In this document: in pieces, positions 1,108 through 61,971 of the stretch | How the letters are laid out: every line of letters starts with the position of its first letter | Position numbering within the stretch: position 1 is the first letter of the stretch | Source of the DNA: Candidatus Omnitrophota bacterium | Lineage (GTDB): Bacteria > Omnitrophota > Omnitrophia > Omnitrophales > Aquincolibacteriaceae | NCBI GenBank assembly: GCA_016196545.1 | Contig: JACPXM010000020.1 | Location: 4,168-68,167 of the forward strand | Reading direction: 5' to 3' | DNA length: 64,000 nt | Translations under genes and position numbers: made by a program | Notes under the pieces: generated by a model | What the model was told of the DNA's origin: nothing | The model's database searches: none | What the model saw: the letters and a program-made list of their open reading frames with translations, nothing else

Positions 1108-1683
1108 GTGACTAAAGTCGATAAAGCCCCCCGCAATCACAAAACCGAAGGCGCTTATGTAAAGAAGGGTCTTATCCTTGTCCATACGGGAGCGGGTAAG
1201 GGAAAAAGCACGGCCGCGTTTGGAACGGCCCTGCGAGCCGTGGGACGGGGCTGGAAAGTGGCGGTGGTTCAATTTATTAAGGGCAAATGGAAAACAGGGG
1301 AAGCCGAGGCCGCCAAAAAATATTTCGGAAAATCCATGGAGTTTTTCCCCATGGGAGACGGCTTTACCTGGGAGACGAAAAATTTTAAGCAGGACGTCCA
1401 AAAGGCCCAGGAGGCCTGGAAGCGATGCGTGAAGTTTTTGCATGACAAAGAGCACGCCCTTGTGATCTTCGATGAAATTAATTATGTCCTGAAATACAAT
1501 TTTTTAGACGTGAAAGAGGTTCTTCGGGAGCTGAAAAAAAAACCACCGATGAAGCACGTGATTCTCACCGGTGGCGGGGTCCCCGAAGAATTGATTGAAA
1601 TCGCAGACCTCGTCACCGAAATGAAATGCATCAAACATCCCTATCAGAAGGGCATCAAAGCGCAGCCCGGCATAGAGTACTAG
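1108..1683 (+). CDS. cobO: cob(I)yrinic acid a,c-diamide / cobalamin adenosyltransferase (CobO/BtuR family)
   Basis: P-loop-like GAGKGKSTAAFG followed by VVQFIKG, characteristic of CobA/CobO/BtuR. Length 191 aa. Confidence 0.8.
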   Translation: MTKVDKAPRNHKTEGAYVKKGLILVHTGAGKGKSTAAFGTALRAVGRGWKVAVVQFIKGKWKTGEAEAAKKYFGKSMEFFPMGDGFTWETKNFKQDVQKAQEAWKRCVKFLHDKEHALVIFDEINYVLKYNFLDVKEVLRELKKKPPMKHVILTGGGVPEELIEIADLVTEMKCIKHPYQKGIKAQPGIEY

Positions 1684-1697
1684 TTATCCTGAATTGC

Positions 1698-2081
1698 ATG
1701 GCCATCCATTGCCCCAAATGCGGAATGAAACATGATGTGGTGAAATTTGAGGAAGGCCGGCGTGTCAAATGTCGCTGTGGCCTGAAACTCGATTTAGGTT
1801 TAATGCAGACGGTGGATGATTTTCTGCGATTTTTTGAAAGTGAAAAGGAAAGAAAAAAGGCCAAGGAAATTCAGGACCACGCCGAGCAGATTTGCCAGAT
1901 GATTTTAGATGAGCATTCCGCGGATATCGATATTGAAATTGCGAAGCAGAAATTAAGAGAAAAAGTGGAGTCCTATTTTCCCGACAAGCTTGAAACCTAC
2001 CGCATGATTTATGAGGCCCGCTTCAGACGTCTTTGGGAGCAATTCCGAGCGCCTGGCGGGCAAGATCCGGCCGGTCCGTAA
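1698..2081 (+). CDS. zinc-ribbon domain hypothetical protein
   Basis: CPKCG...16 aa...CRCG double Cys pair right after an internal ATG at 1698. The longer ORF from 1626 would overlap cobO, so the 1698 start is preferred. Confidence 0.45.
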   Translation: MAIHCPKCGMKHDVVKFEEGRRVKCRCGLKLDLGLMQTVDDFLRFFESEKERKKAKEIQDHAEQICQMILDEHSADIDIEIAKQKLREKVESYFPDKLETYRMIYEARFRRLWEQFRAPGGQDPAGP

Positions 2082-2814
2082 TAATTCCATCCACTCCCCG
2101 CTGGCCCAGTTGTTGGATGTGGTGGCGATCATTAATCGTCCAAAAAAAGACGCGCATTTTTCGGCGCTTTAAAAAAGCAATCATTTCTGAGCTATCCAGC
2201 GCGAACTTAAATTTTTTAGGCGGGAGGCTCGCCACCGCGAAGGAATCAATTTTTCGCGGGTCCTCTTTTTTCTGTTTAAAATCCACGACCTGTTCCAAAA
2301 TTTGTCTTTGAGAAAGAAAGCGCGAAATTTCCGGAAACTCCCGGGCAAGCGTTTCAGCAACCCTGAAATGCTTGGATCCCACAATGACGCGCGAGCTGGC
2401 TTTAAAACGGTCCACAAGCTGCATGACGGAGCGGGTAGTTTCCACGGAATTTTCCTTGATCTCGATTGCAAACATTTTTTCCGGATATCGATCAAAGACC
2501 TGTTCCAGCGTCGGAATCTTGAGGCCTTTGCCGCGTTCGGGAAAGGATTTATTTTTTTGAGGGTCAAAGCGAAATCCGGCGTCCAGGGATTCGATTTCCC
2601 CCAAGGTCTTTTGAAAAATATAGCCGGAACCGTTTGTGGTGCGCTCAAGCCGGGCATCGTGTAAAATGACGGGAATTTTGTCGCGGGTCCTATGCACGTC
2701 GAATTCAATCATGTCCGCCTGCATTGGGCCCAGGGCCAGATCAAAGGACTCAAGCGTATTTTCCGGCAAATAGGCACCAGCCCCGCGATGGCCAATTACA
2801 AAAGGGTGTTTCAT
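2023..2814 (-). CDS. glycerophosphoryl diester phosphodiesterase (GDPD/UgpQ family)
   Basis: N-terminus HPFVIGHRGAGAYLPENTLESF is the GDPD catalytic His-Arg signature. Length 263 aa. Confidence 0.8.
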   Translation of the reverse strand: MKHPFVIGHRGAGAYLPENTLESFDLALGPMQADMIEFDVHRTRDKIPVILHDARLERTTNGSGYIFQKTLGEIESLDAGFRFDPQKNKSFPERGKGLKIPTLEQVFDRYPEKMFAIEIKENSVETTRSVMQLVDRFKASSRVIVGSKHFRVAETLAREFPEISRFLSQRQILEQVVDFKQKKEDPRKIDSFAVASLPPKKFKFALDSSEMIAFLKRRKMRVFFWTINDRHHIQQLGQRGVDGIITDRPDLARQALGIAPKDV

Positions 2815-3582
2815 ATGATTTGCGTCATTTTAGTCGAACCGGAGTCTTCTGACAATATCGGAGCTGTCGCAAGGGCCATGAAAAATATGGGCCTGGCGGA
2901 TCTCAGGCTTATTTTGCCTCCGAAAGACTTCAAAAGGAAGGCCAAAAAAATGGCCATGTCGGCGCAGGGCACCCTTCGCCGGGCAAGGGTTTTTAAGGAT
3001 TTAAAATCGGCCTCCAAAGATTTGCAGTTTTTGATAGGAACAACCCGTCGGTTGGGGAAAAAAAGAGGCTATTCACTGGAGTTTTCCGAGGCCCTTTATA
3101 AACTTTTAAGCTCAGGGCTCAAGTCCGGGATTGTCTTTGGCAAAGAATCCAAGGGATTGGCGAATTCGGATTTATCTCTTTGCGATGCCGTTGTAACGAT
3201 TCCTTCTTCTTCAAAATATCCTTCGCTTAATCTTGCCCAGGCCGTGATGATTTTTGCATTTGAGTTATTTTTTAAATCATCCCAAGCGAAGGCGGGCCGG
3301 CCGGCTCCAGCCTTAGTCTCCAAGGCCAGAATTCACAACATCCTTCAATGGATGCATGAGGCCTTAACGGTCCTTAAATATCACCCTGAAGTCATCCAAC
3401 GCATTCAAGTTACTTTTTCAAATTTGTTGAAGCGAGCGGGTTTGGAAGAACCCGAGGCACAGATGTTCACGGGATTGTTTCAAAGAATCCATCAGCAAAA
3501 ATCAATCGGTACCAGGTTCCTTTTTAAAAAAAGGAACCTGGTACCTTTCGGGGCTCCATGCTACAATTTTCCGCATGAATGA
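2815..3582 (+). CDS. trmJ: SpoU/TrmH-family RNA 2'-O-methyltransferase, TrmJ-like
   Basis: ICVILVEPESSDNIGAVARAMKNMGL matches the TrmJ N-terminus (E. coli [26 protein letters not shown], from memory). The ATG at 2815 directly abuts the minus-strand GDPD start at 2814. Confidence 0.75.
   Translation: MICVILVEPESSDNIGAVARAMKNMGLADLRLILPPKDFKRKAKKMAMSAQGTLRRARVFKDLKSASKDLQFLIGTTRRLGKKRGYSLEFSEALYKLLSSGLKSGIVFGKESKGLANSDLSLCDAVVTIPSSSKYPSLNLAQAVMIFAFELFFKSSQAKAGRPAPALVSKARIHNILQWMHEALTVLKYHPEVIQRIQVTFSNLLKRAGLEEPEAQMFTGLFQRIHQQKSIGTRFLFKKRNLVPFGAPCYNFPHE
3507..3547 (+). terminator. perfect 18-bp palindromic hairpin inside the trmJ 3' end, 28 nt upstream of pyrE (terminator/attenuator candidate)
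   Basis: ggtaccaggttccttttt / aaaaaggaacctggtacc is a perfect inverted repeat followed by tttcgg. Its right arm AAGGAACCTGGTACCTTT recurs at 43151. Confidence 0.4.
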
Positions 3583-4123
3583 ACAGGAACTCAAAGAGGA
3601 ACTCCTAAAACTTCTTAAAGAAAAAGCAGTGATTCGCGGCTCGCGTACGCTCGCTTCCGGAAAAAAGTCAGATTATTACATCGATGGCAAGCAGATCACG
3701 CTGGATTCTCACGGACTTTTAATCGTCGGAAAATTGATTCTCTCACTCATCCACGGAACGAATGCGGATGCGGTGGGCGGACCCACGCTTGGAGCAGATC
3801 CTCTGGCTTCCGCGGTAGCCCTTCTAAGTTCTCATACCGGAAAACCGCTGAAAGCCTTTATTGTCCGCAAGGAAGCCAAAAAACACGGTATGCAAAAAAT
3901 GATTGAAGGTCCCTTGTTAAAGCTCGGAGACAAGGTCGTTATTGTGGAAGATGTCATTACGACGGGCGGCTCGGTCTTGACGGCCATTCAAGAAGTTGAA
4001 AAAATCGGAGCAAAAATAGTAAAAGTGATTTGCCTCGTGGATAGGAACGAAGGTGCCTTCGAAAAACTCTCGCCGTATAATTACTCGCCGATCTTTACGT
4101 TAAGTGATTTGGGACTCAAATAA
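3575..4123 (+). CDS. pyrE: orotate phosphoribosyltransferase
   Basis: PRPP-binding motif VVIVEDVITTGGS. N-terminal region ...YYIDGKQ... is typical of PyrE. Length 182 aa. Confidence 0.85.
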   Translation: MNEQELKEELLKLLKEKAVIRGSRTLASGKKSDYYIDGKQITLDSHGLLIVGKLILSLIHGTNADAVGGPTLGADPLASAVALLSSHTGKPLKAFIVRKEAKKHGMQKMIEGPLLKLGDKVVIVEDVITTGGSVLTAIQEVEKIGAKIVKVICLVDRNEGAFEKLSPYNYSPIFTLSDLGLK

Positions 4124-4170
4124 AACAAACCGGGGACAGGTTTGAATTTCAAGCCTGTCCCCGGTTTGTT
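4124..4170. terminator. bidirectional intrinsic terminator between convergent pyrE and the minus-strand secreted-protein gene
   Basis: 16-bp perfect stem acaaaccggggacagg / cctgtccccggtttgt with a 13-nt loop. A T-run follows the stem on the minus strand. Confidence 0.6.
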
Positions 4171-8016: not shown

Positions 8017-8611
8017 TTTGAAGACGCCGGGGATTACCGCATTTCACACGCTCCTCTATTTTTTAAAGATCCATGAAGCCCATACTCAAACCACCCAAAA
8101 AGAGCGGGAAGCCTTATCGAAATATTCTTCAGGGAAGAAAAAGGCCGTCGAAATTGGTGTTTATGAAGGAGTTAATACGCGAATCATTGCGCAGCATTTA
8201 GATTCTCAAGGAGTTTTATATGCAGTCGACCCTTTTTTCCGCGGAAGAATCGGGATTTGTTGGAATGAATTTATTGCGCGAGGAGAAATTCGCCGGGGAA
8301 AAGTTAAAAACGTGGTTCAATTTGTTCATGCGACAAGCCATGAAGCGACTCAAACACTAAAAGGTCAATTCGATTTTATTTTTATAGATGCGGATCATTC
8401 TTATGAAGGAATCAAGTCTGATTGGGAAGATTGGTCCCCACGAATCGAAAAAGAGGGGATTATCGCATTGCATGATACTCAAGTTCCCGACCATGACGCT
8501 AGTATTGCTCAACTGGGCTCTTACCGATTTTTTCAGGAGCATATTCGACAGGATGCGCGATTCGAAATCCTGAAACAGACGGACTCTTTGAGTATTTTAA
8601 AGCGAAAATAA
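7994..8611 (+). CDS. class I SAM-dependent methyltransferase (TylF/CmcI-like O-methyltransferase fold)
   Basis: EIGVYEGVNT...FIFIDADHSYEGIKSDWEDW matches the sugar O-methyltransferase family. Confidence 0.65.
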   Translation: MRSQGATDLKTPGITAFHTLLYFLKIHEAHTQTTQKEREALSKYSSGKKKAVEIGVYEGVNTRIIAQHLDSQGVLYAVDPFFRGRIGICWNEFIARGEIRRGKVKNVVQFVHATSHEATQTLKGQFDFIFIDADHSYEGIKSDWEDWSPRIEKEGIIALHDTQVPDHDASIAQLGSYRFFQEHIRQDARFEILKQTDSLSILKRK

Positions 8612-8613
8612 AA

Positions 8614-9642
8614 TTGCTTCATATCGCCATCACCGCAGATCCTGAGCTTCCTATCCCGCCAAAGTTGTATGGAGGGATCGAACGTGTGATCGCCATTATG
8701 ATTCCCGAACTCCTAAAAAGGGGACATCAAGTCACCTTATTTGCTCATCCGAATTCAAAAATAGCCTGCAATTTGATTCCCTATTCCGGGAAAAGCAGCG
8801 TTTCCCTCGTCGATACTTGGAAGAATATGCAATGTATCAAAAAAGCCTATTTCGCCAAAAAATTTGATGTCCTTCATAGTTTTGGCCGGCTGGCTTATCT
8901 TTTACCACTCTTATCGAAGCCCTTTCCTAAAATTATGACGTATCAAAGAAAAATTAGTCCGAGGTCAATTCTTTGGGGAAGTCGATTGTCGCGTGGCAGC
9001 CTTCATTTTACCGCAATTAGTCATCATATGGTGGAGCCGGTAAAAAAATTATCGGATTGGAAAGTGATTTACAACGCCGTTGATATCAGAACTTTTCAAT
9101 TTCAAGCTCAGGTGGATTCGCAGGCCCCCTTAATCTTTTTAGGACGCGTGGAGGAAATCAAAGGCCCCCATCTCGCCATTGAAGTGGCACAAAAAAGCGG
9201 CCGCCGGCTCCTCATCGCAGGCAATATCCCTCAAGGAAGCAAGCATCAAAACTATTTTGAAACCCGTATCAAACCTCATCTTATGCCCCGTTTTATTGAC
9301 TATATCGGTCCCGTGGAGGATGCCCAAAAAAATGAGTTGTTGAGGCAGGCCGCTGCACTCCTGATGCCTATTTTGTGGGAGGAGCCCTTTGGAATTGTGA
9401 TGGCGGAAGCGCTTGCATGCGGTACGCCGGTGATTGGGCTGCGTCAAGGCTCGGTTCCGGAAGTCATCTTGCAGGGACAAAATGGATTTGTTTGTGACAG
9501 CGTGGGTGAAATGATTGTGGCGGTGGCAAAGATAGGCCAGATTTCACGCGCAAAATGCCGCGAGGACGCGGAGAAAAGATTCAGTCATTCGGTTTTAGTC
9601 GATCAATATGAAAATTTGTATCAAAGCGCTTTAAAAAAATGA
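8614..9642 (+). CDS. glycosyltransferase, GT4-like
   Basis: LHIAITADPELPIPPKLYGGIERV and EEPFGIVMAEALACGTPVIG. TTG start; an in-frame ATA two codons upstream would give MKLLHIA. Confidence 0.75.
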   Translation: MLHIAITADPELPIPPKLYGGIERVIAIMIPELLKRGHQVTLFAHPNSKIACNLIPYSGKSSVSLVDTWKNMQCIKKAYFAKKFDVLHSFGRLAYLLPLLSKPFPKIMTYQRKISPRSILWGSRLSRGSLHFTAISHHMVEPVKKLSDWKVIYNAVDIRTFQFQAQVDSQAPLIFLGRVEEIKGPHLAIEVAQKSGRRLLIAGNIPQGSKHQNYFETRIKPHLMPRFIDYIGPVEDAQKNELLRQAAALLMPILWEEPFGIVMAEALACGTPVIGLRQGSVPEVILQGQNGFVCDSVGEMIVAVAKIGQISRAKCREDAEKRFSHSVLVDQYENLYQSALKK

Positions 9643-43172: not shown

Positions 43173-44273
43173 GGAACGGGGTTTATCGGAAGAAATAAAG
43201 GGCAATTCGCGGGTCCGTGCCGAAATTTCAGAGTCCGCTGTTTTAATCATTACTTCCTCACTCATACCAAAAGCCTCTTTTGTGACATAGCCTAAGGCAA
43301 TACCCTTTCCAAGCGTCGGTGAAAAACACGCGCTTGTAATCCATCCCGCTTCCAAGCCGTTTTTTAGGACCTTGTTCCCGGATCCCGGGAGCGGACCTCT
43401 CTCGAAGACAAATCCCGTCATTTTTCGCTGGAGTCCCCCGTAAGTTTTTACCCGCGCCACGACTTCTTGTCCTGGATAACAGCCTTTCGTTTCGCTTGCG
43501 GCAAGGCCTTCCAGGCCGGTTTCAGGGAGGGAAATATCCTCGTCCACGTCAATCCCGTAACGAAGCACGCCCGCCTCAATTCTTAAAATTTCACTGGTTC
43601 CATGTCCCACGGGTTGCAGCCCGTAAAGTTTTCCCACCACCATGACACGCTCTGCAACCCGCATGGCGTTTTCTTTGGCCACCGTCAAATGATAGCCCCA
43701 TTCCCCGGTGCGGCTGATGCGGATCACGGTGACCTCCACATCCCCCATGTGAAAATTTCCATGCTGGCGCTTGGAGAGTTCGGGAAAGGGGCCGGGAAAA
43801 AGCGTGTGGGCGAGGGCCTCGGAGCGCGGTCCCTGCAGGGCGAGCAGCGCAAAGTCCTCCGTGATGTCGCGTAATTTTACGTCTTCATTAATAAGGTATT
43901 TATTAAGGTGGGAAATCAGCCGCTTTTCCATCCCCATATCCACGCCCAGCAAGATGGAATTAGCAAAGACAAGGACATTCATATCCATTAAAATCTTTCC
44001 CGTGGCCGTCAAAAGCGCCGCATAACAGCCGTTTCCCAATCCCAAATTTTGAATGTCATTGGAAAGCATGCGATGAAGAAATGCGGCGCGGTCTTTTCCC
44101 GTCACTTCGATTTTCCCCCGGTAGGACTGGTCAATTAATCCCACGGCTTTTCTTACGGCATGATATTCAGTTTGAAAATCCTTAAAAAGGGAAGGGATGC
44201 GCCAATCTTGTTCTACCTTCAGAGTTGCCCCAAGGGATTCCCACAGGGGGTTGAGCGGAAGATCACGAATCAT
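43170..44273 (-). CDS. GcvT-family folate-binding protein (aminomethyltransferase / YgfZ-like)
   Basis: ...KAVGLIDQSYRGKIEVTGKDRAAFLHRMLSNDI... is characteristic of the GcvT N-domain. Confidence 0.65.
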   Translation of the reverse strand: MIRDLPLNPLWESLGATLKVEQDWRIPSLFKDFQTEYHAVRKAVGLIDQSYRGKIEVTGKDRAAFLHRMLSNDIQNLGLGNGCYAALLTATGKILMDMNVLVFANSILLGVDMGMEKRLISHLNKYLINEDVKLRDITEDFALLALQGPRSEALAHTLFPGPFPELSKRQHGNFHMGDVEVTVIRISRTGEWGYHLTVAKENAMRVAERVMVVGKLYGLQPVGHGTSEILRIEAGVLRYGIDVDEDISLPETGLEGLAASETKGCYPGQEVVARVKTYGGLQRKMTGFVFERGPLPGSGNKVLKNGLEAGWITSACFSPTLGKGIALGYVTKEAFGMSEEVMIKTADSEISARTRELPFISSDKPRS

Positions 44274-45420
44274 GCTTTGAAATGTCCTCTGCGATTTTAC
44301 GGTGGGGCGAAGGAAGGGGATAGAATTTAAGGCGGTCTGTGGAAATCCAACGAGAAGGACGCGAGCGAGAAGACTCGAGAAGGGGAAGGCCCATTTTCCT
44401 TGTCGTTTGCCTCATTGCCGTTGCCTCTTTTAATTCGAAGACCTCAAGTGAAATTCGGTATTTTGTAAATCCATGATGGACAGTCATGCGATGGGATAGC
44501 AGGGCCTGCCTTGCCCCGGCACTCGATTTTATGCGACGCATCATTTCATTTCTCGTTTTCCAAAACGGGAATATCCAAAGACCGCCCCAGCGCTCGTCAA
44601 GGGACTGCTTTTGAATTAAGACGTGGCCGTTCCTTCTTAAGATTAAGGCATAATTCCTGATTTTTTCAATAGTTTCTTTCCGTGCCTTCACCGGAAATTT
44701 TTCGGGGTTTCTCCCCTGAAATCCCAGGCAATGGGATTTTAGGGGGCAGGCCGGGCAGCGGGGAGCGTCGGGAAGACAAACCGTTGCCCCCAATTCCATC
44801 AGGGCCTGATTAAAATCACCGGGGTGGAAATCTTTAGACAGAAAGGGATTACGATTGGCCCCGACAAGCGTTGATGCGATGCCCCATAATTTTTTTTGAC
44901 CTTCCGTGGAATCTGCCGGCGTCTTGATTGCGAAAAACCTTGTGAGGACTCGAATCACATTCCCATCCAGCACTGGCACCCTTTCTCGGAACGCAATACT
45001 TGCAATGGCCCCTGCTGTGTAGCGGCCGATACCGGGAAGTGTCATCAACTCGGAGGCCGTTTCAGGGAAACGCTTATTTATAGCAAGCCTTTTTGCAGTT
45101 TCGTGAAGCATTCTGACGCGGCGGTAATAGCCAAGACCCGTCCACAATTTCATTACTTCCTGGAGAGATGTTCGCGCCAAAGATGTAAGGGAGGGAAACC
45201 GCGCAATCCAACGTTTGTAATAGGGGATCACGGTTTTGACCTGTGTTTGTTGCAGCATAATTTCTGAGATCCAAATCTTGTAGGGATCTTTCGTCTGCCT
45301 CCACGGTAAATCCCTCGCCCTCAGCCGATACCATTTAAGAAGGCGATTTCGAAACAACGGATGCGAATGCATGAAATGAAAGTACTGAATTCCGCCTTCA
45401 AAATCAAGGATTAAAACCAA
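44263..45420 (-). CDS. mutY: A/G-specific adenine DNA glycosylase
   Basis: LLKWYRLRARDLPWRQTKDPYKIWISEIMLQQTQVKTVIPYYKRWIARFP plus a C-terminal NUDIX-like domain. True start is probably the internal ATG near 45372. Confidence 0.85.
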   Translation of the reverse strand: MVLILDFEGGIQYFHFMHSHPLFRNRLLKWYRLRARDLPWRQTKDPYKIWISEIMLQQTQVKTVIPYYKRWIARFPSLTSLARTSLQEVMKLWTGLGYYRRVRMLHETAKRLAINKRFPETASELMTLPGIGRYTAGAIASIAFRERVPVLDGNVIRVLTRFFAIKTPADSTEGQKKLWGIASTLVGANRNPFLSKDFHPGDFNQALMELGATVCLPDAPRCPACPLKSHCLGFQGRNPEKFPVKARKETIEKIRNYALILRRNGHVLIQKQSLDERWGGLWIFPFWKTRNEMMRRIKSSAGARQALLSHRMTVHHGFTKYRISLEVFELKEATAMRQTTRKMGLPLLESSRSRPSRWISTDRLKFYPLPSPHRKIAEDISKHDS

Positions 45421-45460: not shown

Positions 45461-45570
45461 CCGCTACCTCCCCCCACCCGGTGTTTAAAAGCTTTTTCAC
45501 ACCGAGTGGGGGGAGGGTTGCCGGGAGAATGACAATTGCACGAACTGGTAGACACCCCCTGGTACTTTTT
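45461..45570. repeat. composite GC-rich repeat: a 50-nt near-perfect palindrome (45467-45516) fused to a 45-nt module shared with 48520-48576
   Basis: cctccccccacccggtgt...acaccgagtggggggagg, with 1 mismatch in 18 bp. Then gttgccgggagaatgacaattgcacgaactggtagacacccc. Confidence 0.55.
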
Positions 45571-45594: not shown

Positions 45595-46716
45595 GTGTAT
45601 AATCGAGCCGTGGCGAAACGGACCTTAGATCAAATATTGGCCGAACACACGCGTGAAGGCGAGCTTTACGAAAAGCTGCCGGATGGGAGAATCCGCTGCT
45701 TCGCCTGCGGCCACCGCTGTCCGATCCCGGAAGGCCGGGCCGGTGTTTGTAAAATCCGTTTTAATCAAGGTGGAATTTTGCATGTCCCCTGGGGTTATGT
45801 CGGCGGCCTTCAAGATGATCCCGTCGAAAAGAAACCCTTTTTCCATGCCATGCCCGGGGTGCGTGCGCTCAGCTTCGGGATGCTGGGATGCGACTTTCAT
45901 TGCAGCTATTGCCAAAACTGGATTACAAGTCAGGCCCTTCGAGATCCCGAGGCCGTTTCCCCGCCGGTTGAAATTTCCCCCAAAGAACTAGTAAATTTAG
46001 CGATCGAAAGGCAATGTCAATTGGTCACGAGTACTTATAATGAGCCTTTGATTACAAGTGAATGGGGCATTGAAATTTTTAAAGAAGCGAAACACCGCGG
46101 CCTTGTGACGTCCTATGTCTCAAACGGAAATGGAACGTCGGAAGTCCTTGATTATATTCAACCTTGGGTGGATCTCTATAAAGTGGATCTAAAAAGTTTC
46201 GAAGACAGTCACTATCGGGAGCTTGGCGGCGCTCTAAAAAATGTTTGCGAGACAATCCGCGGGCTTTACGAGCGCAAAATCTGGCTGGAAGTCTTAACGC
46301 TCTTAATTCCGGGATTCAATAATTCTGATGAGGAACTTACCCGCCTTGCGGAATTTCTCGTTTCGGTTTCGCCCGATATCCCCTGGCATGTAACGGCCTT
46401 CCATAAAGATTACAAAATGATGCACTCTGAAAACACACAACCGGAACATCTTCTCCGCGCTGCAGAGATCGGAAAAAAAGCGGGGATTCGTTACCTCTAT
46501 CTCGGCAATCTCCCCGGCCAGGTGGGAGGATGGGAAAATACAATTTGTCCGGAATGCGGAGAAATCCTAGTCCGGCGATTTGGTTTTAAAGTTCTCTCCG
46601 ATTTCCTTACGAAATCCGAAGGTTATTGTCCTAAATGCCGATACAAAATCCCAGGGTTTTGGAAGAAACCAACGGTTCACCGGAGTTCAGAAGGTTATGT
46701 GCAACCTCTCCTGTAA
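45595..46716 (+). CDS. radical SAM enzyme (AmmeMemoRadiSam-system / PflA-like type)
   Basis: N-terminal CFACGHRC...C zinc-ribbon-like Cys cluster, then the CDFHCSYCQN CX3CX2C motif. Confidence 0.7.
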   Translation: MYNRAVAKRTLDQILAEHTREGELYEKLPDGRIRCFACGHRCPIPEGRAGVCKIRFNQGGILHVPWGYVGGLQDDPVEKKPFFHAMPGVRALSFGMLGCDFHCSYCQNWITSQALRDPEAVSPPVEISPKELVNLAIERQCQLVTSTYNEPLITSEWGIEIFKEAKHRGLVTSYVSNGNGTSEVLDYIQPWVDLYKVDLKSFEDSHYRELGGALKNVCETIRGLYERKIWLEVLTLLIPGFNNSDEELTRLAEFLVSVSPDIPWHVTAFHKDYKMMHSENTQPEHLLRAAEIGKKAGIRYLYLGNLPGQVGGWENTICPECGEILVRRFGFKVLSDFLTKSEGYCPKCRYKIPGFWKKPTVHRSSEGYVQPLL

Positions 46717-54086: not shown

Positions 54087-54137
54087 CGGCCAAGATTCGC
54101 TTCGTCATTGCGCGTCATTGCCGGTACAATACCTCTT

Positions 54138-55403
54138 ATGAATTCACAAAAAAAATCATTCCTGATCATTGGCGGTGGGATTGTGGGGCTTGCCACAGCG
54201 CGCGAAATTTTGCTTCGTAACCCTGAAGCGAAAGTTACGGTTCTAGAAAAGGAATCACAAATTGCCCTGCATCAAAGTGGCCACAATAGCGGTGTTATTC
54301 ATTCCGGAATTTATTACAAGCCCGGCACCGAAAAGGCCAAGACTTGTCGCGAGGGGATTCGTCTCCTTCATGAATTCTGTGAGGAAAAAGGAATTGTGCG
54401 CCGGCGTGTGGGGAAATTAATTATCGCAATCTCGGAAGAAGAAAGACAGCGGCTTGGTCCGCTGAAGGAGCAAGGCCTTGCAAACGGGATTAAAGATATT
54501 AAGCAAGTCCGTCAAGACGAAATCAAAGGTTATGAACCTTCCGTTTCAGGAATTGAAGGAATCTATCTTCCGGAAGTCGCGCTTGTAGATTTTAAGGAGG
54601 TCAGTGAGGCGCTCAAGGCGGATATTGAAGCGCATGGCGGGGAAGTGGTCGTGCATCGTAAGGTGACGAAAATTGTGAGATTGCGAGATCGGACCCCTTT
54701 ACCTTTATCCTCTCCCCCTTTAAGGGGGGGAGGGCAGGGTGAGGGAGAAATTATTGTTCTTGCCGACAATTGCGAATACAAAGCCTCTTTCCTCATTAAT
54801 TGCGCGGGTCTTTACAGCGATAAAATTGCAAGGCTTTCCGGGCTTTACCCAAGAGTCCGAATCGTTCCCTTTCGCGGCGAATATTTCTGGCTCAATCCGG
54901 AAAAAGCAAAACTTATCCGAGGGCTTGTCTACGGGGTTCCCGATCCACGGCTTCCATTTTTAGGCATGCATTTAACTCCGACCTTGGAGGGACGCGTCAA
55001 AGTGGGACCCAATGCCGTCCTTGCCCTCGCGCGCGAAGGCTATTTTTCAAATCAAATCAACGCCCAAGAGACATTTGAACTTGTGGCTTCACCCGTCTTT
55101 TGGCGAATGGCATTACGTTATTGGAAAACAGGAATTTCTGAAGTGATTCATTCCCGGATGATGAATTTTTATCTGGCCACGCTTCGGAAATTTCTCCCCA
55201 CGGCGGAAATTTCAGATTTAACGCCGGGTCCTACGGGCGTGCGTGCGCAGGCCGTCGATGAAAAGGGCCAGCTCGTAAGTGATTTTTATTTTATGGAAGA
55301 GTCCGACGCCTGCCATGTCTTGAATGCCCCGTCTCCGGCTGCCACTGCTGCCCTCGCCATTGCCAAGCGCGTCGTGGATCAAATCAAGATGCAGGATTTT
55401 TAA
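54138..55403 (+). CDS. FAD-dependent oxidoreductase, L-2-hydroxyglutarate oxidase (LhgO)-like
   Basis: FAD motif SFLIIGGGIVGLATA. HNSGVIHSGIYY is typical of LhgO-like enzymes. Confidence 0.65.
   Translation: MNSQKKSFLIIGGGIVGLATAREILLRNPEAKVTVLEKESQIALHQSGHNSGVIHSGIYYKPGTEKAKTCREGIRLLHEFCEEKGIVRRRVGKLIIAISEEERQRLGPLKEQGLANGIKDIKQVRQDEIKGYEPSVSGIEGIYLPEVALVDFKEVSEALKADIEAHGGEVVVHRKVTKIVRLRDRTPLPLSSPPLRGGGQGEGEIIVLADNCEYKASFLINCAGLYSDKIARLSGLYPRVRIVPFRGEYFWLNPEKAKLIRGLVYGVPDPRLPFLGMHLTPTLEGRVKVGPNAVLALAREGYFSNQINAQETFELVASPVFWRMALRYWKTGISEVIHSRMMNFYLATLRKFLPTAEISDLTPGPTGVRAQAVDEKGQLVSDFYFMEESDACHVLNAPSPAATAALAIAKRVVDQIKMQDF
54694..54747. repeat. GC-rich palindromic element inserted in-frame in the LhgO-like gene
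   Basis: cccctttacctttatcctctccccctttaagggggggagggcagggtgagggag encodes RTPLPLSSPPLRGGGQGEGE. It shares the module ccctcaccc..ccctc with the acnA element. Confidence 0.5.
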
Positions 55404-58461: not shown

Positions 58462-61263
58462 ATGAGCGGCAAGCATTTATTGAAGATTAAGGGGAAAGAT
58501 TATCACTTCTTTCGATTAGAGGTCTCTAGGAAACTTCCCTATTCCATCCGGATTCTGCTGGAGAATTTACTGCGGCATGAAGATGGAAAAGCGGTGCGGC
58601 GGGAAGATATTGAGGCGCTTGCAGCGTGGGATTCTAAACAGACATCGAATAAGGAAATTGCCTTTATCCCTGGCCGGGTGATTCTTCAGGATTTTACGGG
58701 GGTTCCCTGTGTTGTTGATCTGGCTGCGATGCGCGACAAAATCCGTGAAATGCGGGGCGACGCCAAAAAGATCAATCCGCTTGAGCCCGTGGATTTGGTG
58801 ATCGACCATTCCGTGCAAGTCGATGCCTTCGGCTCTCCGGAAGCCTTCCGTAAAAATGTGGAGCTTGAATTCCAAAGAAATAAAGAACGCTACCAATTCC
58901 TTCGCTGGGGCCAGCAGGCCTTTAGAAATTTCCGCGTGGTGCCGCCGGGAACGGGGATCGTTCATCAAGTAAATCTCGAATATCTTGCCGGTGTCATTCT
59001 CACCAAAAAAGTTGGAAACGAAACACTTCTTTATCCGGACACGCTGGTTGGAACGGATTCTCATACCACGATGATTAATGGCCTGGGCGTTCTGGGTTGG
59101 GGGGTGGGCGGCATTGAGGCCGAGGCTGCAATGCTCGGCCAGCCCATTTCCATGTTGATTCCCGAAGTCGTGGGATTTCGCTTCACCGGAAAACTACAAG
59201 AGGGTGCCACGGCAACGGATCTTGTATTGACGGTTACTGAAATGCTCCGCAAAAAAGGTGTGGTTGGAAAATTCGTGGAATTTTTTGGTCCCGGGCTGGA
59301 TCATTTGACGCTCGCCGATCGCGCGACGATTGCCAATATGGCTCCCGAATACGGGGCAACCACGGGCTATTTTCCCGTGGATGTTGAAACTATGAACTAT
59401 CTTAGATTAAGCGACCGGCAGGCAGAACACGTCGAATTAGCAGAGGCTTATTTTAAAGAACAAGGGCTTTTCCGTACTCCAAATTCTCCTGAGCCCGTTT
59501 TCTCCGACACGCTTGAATTAAACCTTTCCCAAATTGAAGCCAGTCTTGCCGGTCCCAAAAGACCCCAAGATCGAGTCGCCCTGAAAAAGGTAAAACAAAA
59601 TTTCCAAGAAACTTTAAAAACAATCATAAAAGGAAAACCGTTGCCTGAAACGGACCCGAGGCGCGTCAATCATTGGCAGGCGGAAGGCGGAAGCACGAAG
59701 CCCTTAGCTGCCCAATTGCAAAAGGAGCCGTTGGAAATTTCTGAGCCGGTTGAAATCCGGACTGAAGATCAATCTTTCAAAATCAATCATGGCTCTGTGG
59801 TGATTGCTGCCATTACAAGCTGCACGAACACATCCAATCCCGCGGTGATGATGGGCGCGGGGCTTCTTGCGAAAAAGGCAGTGGAACGTGGTCTCAACGC
59901 CAAACCTTGGGTGAAAACTTCGCTGGCCCCGGGTTCCAAAGTCGTGATGGATTATTTGGAAAAGACGGGGCTTAAGACCTATCTTGAGAAATTAAATTTT
60001 CATTTGGTAGGCTACGGATGCACCACGTGTATCGGAAATTCGGGGCCGCTTCTCGAGGAAATCGGTGCTGCGGTCAAAGAAAATGATTTATATGTTGCGG
60101 CCGTACTTTCGGGCAACCGCAATTTTGAAGGACGTGTGAACCCTTTGGTGCGCGCCAATTACCTGGCCTCACCTCCGCTTGTTGTGGCCTACGCGCTCGC
60201 GGGGACCGTCGAAAAAGACCTCACCACGGAACCGCTTGGCCAAGATTCCAAGGGAAATCCTGTTTATCTCAAAGACATTTGGCCCACACAAAAGGAAATT
60301 GAAAACGCGATGCGCGAGGTCGATGCCGCCATGTTTCGAAGACAATATGAAAATGTCTTTGACGGTGAAGAGGCCTGGCGCATCATGAAAGTTCCGACCG
60401 GCGACAATTTTCAATGGGATGAAAAATCCACCTACATCAAAAAACCCCCCTATTTTGAGGGGATGCCCCAAGCGCCTTCCGCTCTTCAGGATATTAAAAA
60501 TGCGCGCGTGCTTGTCAGGGTGGGTGATTCCGTCACAACGGATCATATTTCACCCGCAGGCTCCATTGCCAAAGACAGTCCGGCCGCAAAATATTTAATG
60601 GAGCAAGGTGTTTTGCCCAAAGATTTTAATTCTTACGGGGCCCGCCGGGGAAATCACGAAGTCATGATGCGAGGGACTTTCGCGAATACTCGACTCAAAA
60701 ATGAATTGGCCCCAGGTACGGAGGGCGGCTGGACTCGGTATTTTAATTCGCCCTCACCCCAACCCTCTCCCTCAGGGGGAAAGTTGGGTGAGGGGAATAT
60801 CTCGGTTTATGACGCGGCAGTGGAATATCAAAAACAGGCAACGCCGCTTCTTGTCATTGCGGGAAAGGAATACGGCTCAGGATCCTCCCGTGATTGGGCG
60901 GCCAAAGGCCCCGCGCTGCTTGGCGTCAAGGCCGTGATCGCGGAGAGTTTTGAACGCATTCACCGCTCGAATCTCATTGGAATGGGGATTCTTCCGCTTG
61001 AATTTGAACAAGGTCAAACGCGAAAATCATTGGGATTAACCGGGGAGGAGATTTTTTCCATCGAAGGAATTGCAAAGGATCTTGTACCCGGAAAAAAATT
61101 AGCCGTAGGGGCGCGCCCGGAACCGGGCGGGGAAAATCCCACCCCTCCATCAAAACAATTTTTCGTCAAATGCCGGATTGACACCCCGGTGGAACTTGAA
61201 TATTATCGCCACGGCGGTATCTTACAGTACGTATTAAGACAATTAATAGCAGAAAACAAATAA
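58462..61263 (+). CDS. acnA: aconitate hydratase A
   Basis: Length 933 aa. Fe-S ligand region [10 protein letters not shown] and a C-terminal [17 protein letters not shown]...[21 protein letters not shown] almost identical to E. coli AcnA (from memory). Confidence 0.9.
60749..60796. repeat. GC-rich palindromic element inserted in-frame in acnA
   Basis: cgccctcaccccaaccctctccctcagggggaaagttgggtgagggg encodes [16 protein letters not shown]. The segment is absent from the corresponding E. coli AcnA stretch GGMTRHLPDSDVVSIYDAAM. Confidence 0.6.
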
Positions 61264-61341
61264 CAGAAGACAGAGAACCAATGATCGATAAAACTGTTTT
61301 TTTAATTTTTTGTTCTCTTTCCCCCTATCCTCTGAAGCGAC

Positions 61342-61971
61342 ATGGACGCAAACGACATTAAAATATCCCCCCATTTCTGGCTTAGGCGGCTTCACTCGCT
61401 TTCCGGAGTTTTCCCCATCGGCGCCTTCTTGCTGGAGCATATGTTTTCTAATGCCCTGATTATCAAAGGTCCGGCGGCCTACAATGAACAAATCGCTTTC
61501 TTAAGCGGGCTTCCGTATGTGATTTGGCTGGAAATCTTTTTCATTTATTTGCCCATTCTCTTTCACGCCTTTTATGGTTTTTATGTGATGTTTACGGGAA
61601 AAAGCAATTTGATTTGGTATCCCTATCCGGCCAATTGGATGTATTTTTTGCAGCGCGCTTCAGGCGTTATCACCTTTGTTTATGTGTTTTATCATTTTTA
61701 TCACACACGCGGTGTGAATCTTCTCTACGGGACGGAAGTGAGCTTCGCCCGTATGCAAGAGCTTATGAAAAACCCTGCAATATTTTGGTTTTATATCGTG
61801 GGTCTTTTGGCAGTGATGTTTCATTTCGCTAACGGCCTTTGGGGGTTTTTCATCAGCTGGGGCATAACGATCGGCCCTAAATCCCGCGCGGTTTCAGGCG
61901 TCCTTTGCGCCGGCCTCGGCATAACGCTTTTTGTCGTGGGCGTTAACTCCCTCATTCATTTAATCCCATGA
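61342..61971 (+). CDS. sdhC: succinate dehydrogenase cytochrome b558 subunit (Bacillus-type)
   Basis: Five predicted TM helices with His-containing segments. Directly upstream of sdhA with a 4-nt overlap. Confidence 0.7.
   Translation: MDANDIKISPHFWLRRLHSLSGVFPIGAFLLEHMFSNALIIKGPAAYNEQIAFLSGLPYVIWLEIFFIYLPILFHAFYGFYVMFTGKSNLIWYPYPANWMYFLQRASGVITFVYVFYHFYHTRGVNLLYGTEVSFARMQELMKNPAIFWFYIVGLLAVMFHFANGLWGFFISWGITIGPKSRAVSGVLCAGLGITLFVVGVNSLIHLIP

Follow-up and report, generated by a model that had tools for sequence, protein, structure and literature searches.

The BoxC repeat of Escherichia coli was reportedly described by Bachellier and colleagues in the 1990s, and a study by Hoyne and Maher from 2000 is said to be among the works on this family. 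It later came to light again as the PIT element and received the name TM_ECO, as an intrastrand triplex motif that follows the pattern CCCTCNCCC N3-6 GGGNGAGGG N3 GGGNGAGGG with one mismatched triplet at most (Holder et al., 2015, PMC4666352). In that study, 3610 copies were found in 262 proteobacterial genomes, and the 23 copies in strain K-12 were "always located intergenically"; the repeats showed no association with transposons, phages or plasmids and were tied to local genomic instability, and the triplex, which forms in vitro, was undetectable in vivo. Earlier work cited in the same paper found PIT elements to be without promoter or terminator activity and observed that the polymerase was not blocked in vivo. 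No function and no mechanism of spread has been established for these elements, which are reported to be strictly intergenic in E. coli (PMC4666352). Kaplan et al. (2016, PMC5100583) described the same sequences as a switch between G-quadruplex, hairpin and duplex that is found in intergenic regions only. We report here a palindromic element which, as judged by its homology to the E. coli copies, is a member of this family and which lies in-frame within acnA, the gene for aconitate hydratase A, in a 64,000-nucleotide stretch of contig JACPXM010000020.1 from a Candidatus Omnitrophota bacterium (hereafter the window).

Repetitive extragenic palindromic sequences (REP) are extragenic by definition and are mobilised by RAYT transposases of the Y1 type. 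Rickettsia palindromic elements (RPE) were reportedly described by Ogata and colleagues in 2000. In the list compiled by Delihas (2011, PMC3184786), RPE are about 100-150 bp long and are known from Rickettsia. The same paper reports Correia, ERIC/IRU and BOX/RUP/SPRITE repeats and the QMITEs of Coxiella inside genes, to which they can be fused in-frame either internally or at the 3' ends.

The full extent of the element is 60746..60799, as defined by a covariance-model match and a hairpin fold; no strand is assigned to the element or to its parts. The covariance model (R1), which was built from 11 copies, matched it at 60747-60799 on the plus strand (56.2 bits, E 2.5e-11) and also at 60746-60798 on the minus strand. 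The core of the element (60751-60794) forms an imperfect palindrome rich in GC, with the sequence CCCTCACCC-caa-CCCTCTCCC-tca-GGGGGAAAG-tt-GGGTGAGGG. The outer left arm CCCTCACCC (60751..60759) and the outer right arm GGGTGAGGG (60786..60794), which reads G-E-G in-frame, are complementary at 9/9 positions. The inner left arm CCCTCTCCC (60763..60771) and the inner right arm GGGGGAAAG (60775..60783; CTTTCCCCC on the minus strand) enclose the hairpin loop TCA (60772..60774) and pair imperfectly, the right arm being a decayed form of the family consensus GGGAGAGGG. The initial annotation had described an inverted repeat here, and the palindrome is confirmed. The RNA fold of 60740-60805 was calculated at -33.2 kcal/mol against -21.4 +/- 3.0 for shuffled sequences (z = -4.0), and 0/200 shuffles were as good. 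A 21-mer of the element occurred 0 times in 100 shuffles of the window and is therefore not a chance expectation. In Rfam, the sole match to the element was a spurious mir-320, which scored 21 bits where the gathering score is 55.5 (E 0.35). A scan of 60400-61400 called no intrinsic terminator, meaning a GC-rich hairpin with a U-tract, at the element, whose hairpin tail is GAATATCTCGG, and this candidate was rejected.

The host gene acnA (58462..61263, plus strand), identified from the list of open reading frames (ORFs) and Pfam, encodes 933 aa in an ORF that is unbroken across the element. Its product carries two full Pfam domains, Aconitase at residues 56-581 (E 1e-169) and Aconitase_C at residues 709-850 (E 9e-42), and is 100% identical to a protein annotated as AcnA in a Candidatus Omnitrophica metagenome-assembled genome (MAG), where it lies on a contig of 202,760 bp. 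The element-derived codons encode residues 763-778 and span 60748..60795 on the plus strand; the in-frame element was correctly recognised at the outset, and the span given for it, 60749-60796, is displaced by one base from the codons. In an alignment of 120 AcnA orthologs with 64-70% identity to the query, the usual loop reads TRH(L/F)PDGEKMSIYDAA and the query loop is 13 residues longer; the insert was absent from about 90% of the orthologs, and an alignment with IRP1 placed the same gap opposite it. Distant acnA loci from a metagenome scan, which are 55-63% identical and come from other lineages, served as a negative control, and the site was readable in 75 of them. The stretch FAN...Y measures 50 aa in the query and 37 aa in 67/75 distant loci, with 72/75 lying within two residues of 37. 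The ortholog alignment thus confirmed the proposed extra in-frame insertion of about 13 aa, with a net gain of 13 aa and an intact acnA, and showed that related taxa do not generally share the loop length of the query.

The structure of AcnA was predicted using AlphaFold2 with an 85-sequence alignment, which gave a mean predicted local distance difference test (pLDDT) score of 85.5; a single-sequence run on the C-terminal 283 aa reached a pLDDT of only 31. Scores below 50 were confined to three segments of the protein, namely the interdomain linker at 392-416, residues 692-700 and residues 764-776, the last of which is the insert. The insert was predicted as coil between the strands at 757-759 and 779-781. 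The loop position expected for it is therefore supported by the model, in which it forms an unstructured loop.

Comparison with E. coli placed the element among the BoxC-type repeats. Its minus strand agrees with K-12 TM_ECO no. 17 (Table 1, PMC4666352) at 28/30 positions, loop included. A BLASTN search with window positions 60745-60800 matched 1693/5426 E. coli genomes at 88-95% identity over up to 48 nt (E 1e-6), and no annotated feature lay beneath the best matches (15/15 among the records listed). Read on the minus strand as CTTTCCCCC-TGA-GGGAGAGGG-TTG-GGGTGAGGG, the element fits the TM_ECO pattern in its G blocks and loops and has 2-3 mismatches in its C block, which leads us to regard this copy as decayed. 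In the related locus L001, the copy at this acnA site is an exact fit to the pattern (CCCTCTCCC-CAA-GGGAGAGGG-AAA-GGGTGAGGG). The E. coli and Omnitrophota-type copies share the blocks CCCTCNCCC, GGGAGAGGG and GGGTGAGGG, and neither has an associated transposase or target duplication; the E. coli repeat is dispersed and multi-copy, as the Omnitrophota-type repeat also appears to be. They differ in that the E. coli copies have three blocks (C-G-G) and are always intergenic as reported, whereas the Omnitrophota-type copies are four-block palindromes and 13/15 of them, including both copies in the window, lie in-frame within genes. The initial annotation had anticipated a repeat family with unusual behaviour; the behaviour is indeed unusual, but the element itself is already known as BoxC/PIT/TM_ECO.

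The second copy in the window lies 6 kb upstream of the acnA copy, within the ORF of an L-2-hydroxyglutarate oxidase (LhgO-like FAD oxidoreductase; 54108..55403, plus strand) whose product is 100% identical to P0121, a protein annotated as L-2-hydroxyglutarate oxidase with PF01266. This element (54692..54750, no strand assigned; 55.2 bits, E 4e-11) belongs to a 'TTTAT' subfamily and reads ccctttacc-tttat-CCTCTCCCCC-tttaa-GGGGGGGAGGG-ca-GGGTGAGGG, with the in-frame translation RTPLPLSSPPLRGGGQGEG. In a 60-ortholog alignment, it appears as a 19-aa in-frame insertion in a turn, present in the query only. The covariance model, derived from related copies, detected exactly two copies in the window, those of acnA and lhgO, and the expectation that the acnA palindrome would have other copies was thereby borne out.

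A search of 177 kb of Omnitrophota-type DNA using the same model revealed 15 elements, while 0 matches came from 882 kb of contigs that bear acnA and belong to more distant organisms. Ten of the 15 lie in acnA, two in a glycosyltransferase gene, and one each in lhgO, in the tail of a MoaC/MogA gene of locus L090 and in an intergenic region; related genomes carry 1-4 copies per 8-23 kb locus. The same element occurs at the same acnA loop (761) in P0007, P0010, P0013, P0017 and a P0051-like metagenome locus, the last with a degenerate, nested version. When the acnA DNA of orthologs with Pro/Ser...Gly-Glu-Gly inserts was inspected, 4/4 carried the palindrome at the same loop, and the copy in L004 was doubled. 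Protein alignment and DNA scans showed three further acnA loops to be filled in relatives, near query residues 180, 421 and 883, and the acnA gene of L001 alone holds three copies. All 11 aligned Omnitrophota-type copies are four-block, and palindromy is kept in 93% of the pair cells across them; the apparent compensatory changes are mostly register shifts and are thus not taken as covariation. Both open frames are in use: the PSP...GEG frame in lhgO and at acnA 180, 421 and 761, the PHP...RVR/RAR frame at acnA 883.

Two of these copies lie at gene boundaries. The intergenic four-block copy (L127:7367-7427) ends at the sdhB start codon (7424), and its purine arm (GGGGGAGAGGA...AGGTGAGGGGG) might also act in the manner of a Shine-Dalgarno sequence. 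At L090:1134-1186, from Omnitrophica bacterium RIFCSPLOWO2_01_FULL_45_10b, the element provides a MoaC/MogA-type fusion gene (1141..2082, minus strand) with its last ~13 residues (…HPLTLPSPRGRGIG) and its stop codon; 3'-terminal extensions like this one have been reported for other small repeats.

Inserts and length differences of other kinds were also observed in the two host genes. In the acnA of P0013, the loop near query residue 188 holds a 42-aa in-frame insert, KQSNPVMLSEATRLRVRHTSLSAAKPRSREHLRDPSASPQDD, which derives from a different, longer palindromic element (L003:10610-10735) with the outer stem GTCATGCTGAGCGAAGC / GCTTCGCCTCAGGATGAC; related-looking inserts are present at the same loop in P0022 and P0052. 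This different insert indicates that a second repeat family also enters acnA loops in the clade. In the window, the segment at 61111-61158, at the acnA loop near residue 883, is 7 aa longer than the usual AKGKSGEKK and forms a weak hairpin only; it is possibly a decayed BoxC-type copy. Relatives carry BoxC-type copies at this loop. At 58516-58551 (acnA residues ~19-30), the query is without 7-8 residues that are present in seven other acnA genes compared, and the corresponding region contains CTCACCC or CCTCACC in two relatives. The LhgO ortholog P0122, from a Logan contig, has an in-frame insert of ~41 aa (LSSSPPACPAGRHGVRRESKDDPRLKACGDDEGVEICGNDTVK) that appears to be one more translated repeat; it sits in a loop adjoining the one filled in the lhgO of the window.

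We consider it probable that the acnA segment is a four-block repeat homologous to BoxC/PIT/TM_ECO that was inserted in a loop of domain 4, is translated and tolerated as selfish or neutral DNA, and has entered the acnA genes of relatives recurrently and independently. In the proposed course of events, a symmetric repeat of the form CCCTCACCC-nn-CCCTCTCCC-loop-GGGAGAGGG-nn-GGGTGAGGG would insert in the surface loop of aconitase domain 4. Stop codons are absent from 2/3 of the element's reading frames, while the remaining one is closed by the TGA within GGGTGAGGG. The element can therefore be translated; its pyrimidine arms would yield Pro/Ser and its purine arms Gly/Glu/Lys. The outcome would be a flexible, disordered loop, longer by 13 residues, that the enzyme tolerates. 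In a compact genome, most insertions would fall in genes, and the survivors would be those that are in-frame and in loops able to accommodate extra flexible residues; such a filter could explain the hot spots by itself. Older copies would decay to Pro/Gly-rich loop remnants. For aconitase, the insert most likely has no role, its neutrality being assumed.

The independence of the insertions was assessed from the relationships among the proteins and among the elements. In a neighbour-joining tree, the insert-bearing AcnA proteins are scattered, and the nearest relative of each is without such an insert (P0010/P0028 at 86%, P0051/P0048 at 83% and P0111/P0077 at 81% identity). P0013, P0017 and P0052 have P0003 as their nearest relative, and its short insert of 9 aa may be a remnant of the element. 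In the flanks of the element, identity at 4-fold sites is 0.33, which means saturation. The elements themselves cluster by subfamily and not by insertion site: the acnA copy of the window shares 76-79% identity with loop-883 copies in other genomes versus 52-55% with other loop-761 copies, and the window lhgO copy, of the subfamily 'CCCTCACC-TTTAT-CCTCTCCCCC', is 83% identical to the acnA-421 copy of L001 and 78-81% identical to the two glycosyltransferase copies of L004. The grouping by subfamily, together with the saturated flanks and the insert-free nearest relatives, therefore points to repeated independent insertion at the acnA loops, and from these comparisons we conclude that loop 761 probably saw at least four gains.

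Several points weigh against this interpretation. The acnA copy of the window is off the strict TM_ECO pattern in one block, by the 2-3 mismatches given above, and the copy count for this genome rests on 64 kb, with two copies. P0010, P0013, P0017, P0052 and P0003 form one clade of 78-82% identity, and a single gain followed by losses is possible among the first four. Selection on the hairpin is another possible reason for the repeated use of one loop by copies that keep their stem.

The best of the alternatives extends the single gain to the whole group. One ancient insertion in the acnA loop of an Omnitrophota ancestor would have been passed on by vertical descent, with precise loss from most descendants, and the hairpin would be kept by selection or by gene conversion with other copies in the genome as donors. 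This would fit the filling of the same loop in at least six lineages, the occurrence of P0010, P0013, P0017 and P0052 in one clade whose member P0003 bears a short possible remnant, and the 76-80% likeness among the copies of L001, L002 and L003. However, the filled sequences are scattered over the tree next to neighbours free of such an insert, the window copy is of a different subfamily from those of L001, L002 and L003, and several copies keep near-perfect stems even though the synonymous sites beside them are saturated. Dozens of precise in-frame excisions would also be required, and we regard this history as unlikely.

A second alternative, which we rate lower still and consider very improbable, is that the hairpin is kept for a role at the level of nucleic acid, such as a ribosome pause separating folding units of domain 4, mRNA stability or processing, or a triplex or G-quadruplex switch in the DNA with an effect on replication or transcription. 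The strong stem (-33 kcal/mol, z -4), the 93% of pair cells kept across copies, the repeated use of the same loops and the published in-vitro formation of triplex and G-quadruplex/hairpin structures by the family are consistent with such a role. Against this, the copies share no common functional context, as they occur in four acnA loops, lhgO, a glycosyltransferase gene, a gene tail and an intergenic region, and most orthologs are without the element. Copies also decay, as seen in the mismatched inner stem of the window copy and in the degenerate copies of P0051 and P0052. The signature of a terminator is absent at the acnA element, and the published tests recorded no promoter, terminator or polymerase block in vivo and no triplex footprint in vivo.

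Domain 4 is mobile in IRP1-type aconitases. An adaptive Pro/Ser-Gly peptide, acting as a flexible linker that alters domain-4 movement or an IRP-like RNA-binding moonlighting function of AcnA, would suit an insertion placed in domain 4 and the recurrence of similar peptides at the same loop, but is hardly credible given that the likeness extends to the DNA as a palindrome and is not of the peptide alone, that two reading frames are in use at different sites (GEG versus RVR/RAR), that the same peptides occur in unrelated enzymes, and that the insert is predicted to be disordered and is missing from most orthologs.

Returning to the preferred reading of a selfish or neutral repeat with recurrent entries, we looked for traces of how the copies move. 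No Y1 transposase gene was found in the window, the best tblastn match of the Y1_Tnp protein of L127 having an E value of 3.2. The 11 aligned copies and their junction pairs showed no target-site duplications, terminal repeats or shared flank motif. The four acnA hot spots each lie at or beside an ancestral Gly-Glu codon pair (GGNGAR). In the insert-free acnA of L125, 4/6 GE dipeptides fall inside the hot-spot windows, which make up 7% of the protein, and the 2.8-kb gene contains the heptamer GGGTGAG at exactly two places, loops 761 and 883, and GGTGAGG once, beside loop 421. GGNGAG also forms the core of the arms of the element itself, which is suggestive of microhomology-guided copying. One may thus tentatively propose that BoxC/PIT-type palindromes are mobile across many phyla and enter loops routinely in-frame, and that they spread by such copying (template switching, for example with an ectopic copy as the new template, or short-homology conversion) and not by a transposase; we hold this wider proposal to be doubtful. 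Two points weigh against it: GE dipeptides characteristically occur in exposed turns, and earlier copies could have left the heptamers behind as footprints. Use of the ancestral GGTGAG as an arm of the element would fit the reading frame at loops 180, 421 and 761, but the arm at loop 883 is read in a different frame from the ancestral GE codons, and for this reason we treat microhomology as a working idea only.

In its behaviour, the element resembles the RPE. The initial annotation had drawn this parallel, and it is upheld by the acnA and lhgO inserts, which are absent from orthologs and leave their genes intact, and by the relatives with filled sites at four acnA loops. Both kinds of element are palindromic, lie in-frame within housekeeping genes, encode surface peptides that leave the protein intact, show varied decay and occur in filled and empty orthologs. 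They differ in that RPE are AT-rich, whereas the element described here is ~45-55 bp long, GC-rich and polypyrimidine/polypurine, and its family is found in many phyla; judged by length and base composition, homology to RPE is implausible. With REP and REPIN sequences, the element shares short GC-rich hairpins, many dispersed copies and insertion without target duplication. A link to RAYT/IS200 was rejected, as the window has no Y1 match and the Y1_Tnp of L127 is flanked by an unrelated repeat of its own. This L127 unit (8294-9116) contains a Y1_Tnp (IS200/RAYT-like) gene (8484..9086, 200 aa) bracketed by a 25-nt inverted repeat, GTACCGTTTCCAAAAGTGCCAGGTT, that is 96% complementary; from its sequence, it is classed as a REP/RAYT-like unit unrelated to the BoxC-type element. 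[quoted passage not shown] They differ from the element in being much longer and in having terminal inverted repeats derived from insertion sequences as well as target-site duplications, neither of which is visible here. This identity was rejected, as none of the 11 aligned copies is bordered by direct repeats and no motif is common to their left and right sides.

The distribution of the family was examined in a broader set of genomes. At least 120 stretches contain the core motif CCCTCACCC-N1-4-CCCTCTCCC; their source genomes belong to many phyla and include Proteobacteria, Cyanobacteria, Planctomycetota, Verrucomicrobiota, Chloroflexota, Acidobacteriota, Nitrospirota, Actinomycetota MAGs, an Uhrbacteria (CPR, candidate phyla radiation) MAG and Omnitrophica. 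This broad bacterial sample gave 150 motif matches, among which 111 were of the classic three-block form and 3 were four-block, two of the latter being the two strands of one element in the Omnitrophica locus L090. The four-block palindromic form appears to be enriched in the Omnitrophota clade and appears to be new. In-frame copies were not confined to Omnitrophota. For 40/150 matches, the motif lay in an ORF that extends for 60 codons or more to either side. A Pfam test of ten of these identified seven as real proteins in which domains flank the motif left and right or the element falls within a matched domain, namely HsdR, an ABC transporter, Mfd (two copies), a radical-SAM protein, lipoamide dehydrogenase, a class I aminoacyl-tRNA synthetase and an IcmF-like fusion; an eighth tested candidate, PrmC, had a domain match on one side only. 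Among the papers searched, none described in-frame BoxC/PIT insertions or their translated peptides (GEGRGEG and similar). The in-frame colonisation of housekeeping genes, the recurrent hot spots and the four-block variant thus appear to be undescribed so far. Among viral contigs of IMG/VR (L209-L288), the three-block pattern CCCTCTCCC-N2-8-GGGAGAGGG-N1-4-GGGTGAGGG was observed in at least 120 predicted viral or prophage contigs, which may include host flanks, and phages could be a vehicle for the spread of the family across phyla.

The window contains other palindromes outside the two elements. A 50-nt intergenic palindrome, CCTCCCCCCACCCGGTGTTTAAAAGCTTTTTCACACCGAGTGGGGGGAGG, is located at 45467-45516 between the divergent genes 44263..45420 (minus strand) and 45595..46716 (plus strand); it matches the element model weakly (E 0.5) and may be an operator or a different repeat. 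A strong palindrome with 22-bp arms (AACAAACCGGGGACAGGTTTGA...) at 4124-4170 directly follows the ORF 3575..4123, a terminator-like position, and another strong palindrome, GGTACCAGGTTCCTTTTTAAAAAAAGGAACCTGGTACC, lies at 3508-3545 near the end of the ORF 2692..3582.

The findings extend the host range of the BoxC/PIT/TM_ECO family to candidate phyla, including Omnitrophota and Patescibacteria. Translated copies in housekeeping enzymes, recurring at the same loops across lineages, would constitute direct evidence of the mobility of the family. The presence of filled and empty sites in conserved genes could permit the reconstruction of insertion junctions and, if the wider proposal of microhomology-guided spread is correct, would make a spreading mechanism that has been unexplained for 30 years directly testable. 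The element also offers an explanation for the Pro/Ser...Gly-Glu-Gly low-complexity loops of metagenomic proteins, which can mislead alignments, domain boundaries and structure prediction. Beside the RPE of Rickettsia, it would represent a further case of selfish DNA that makes new protein segments.

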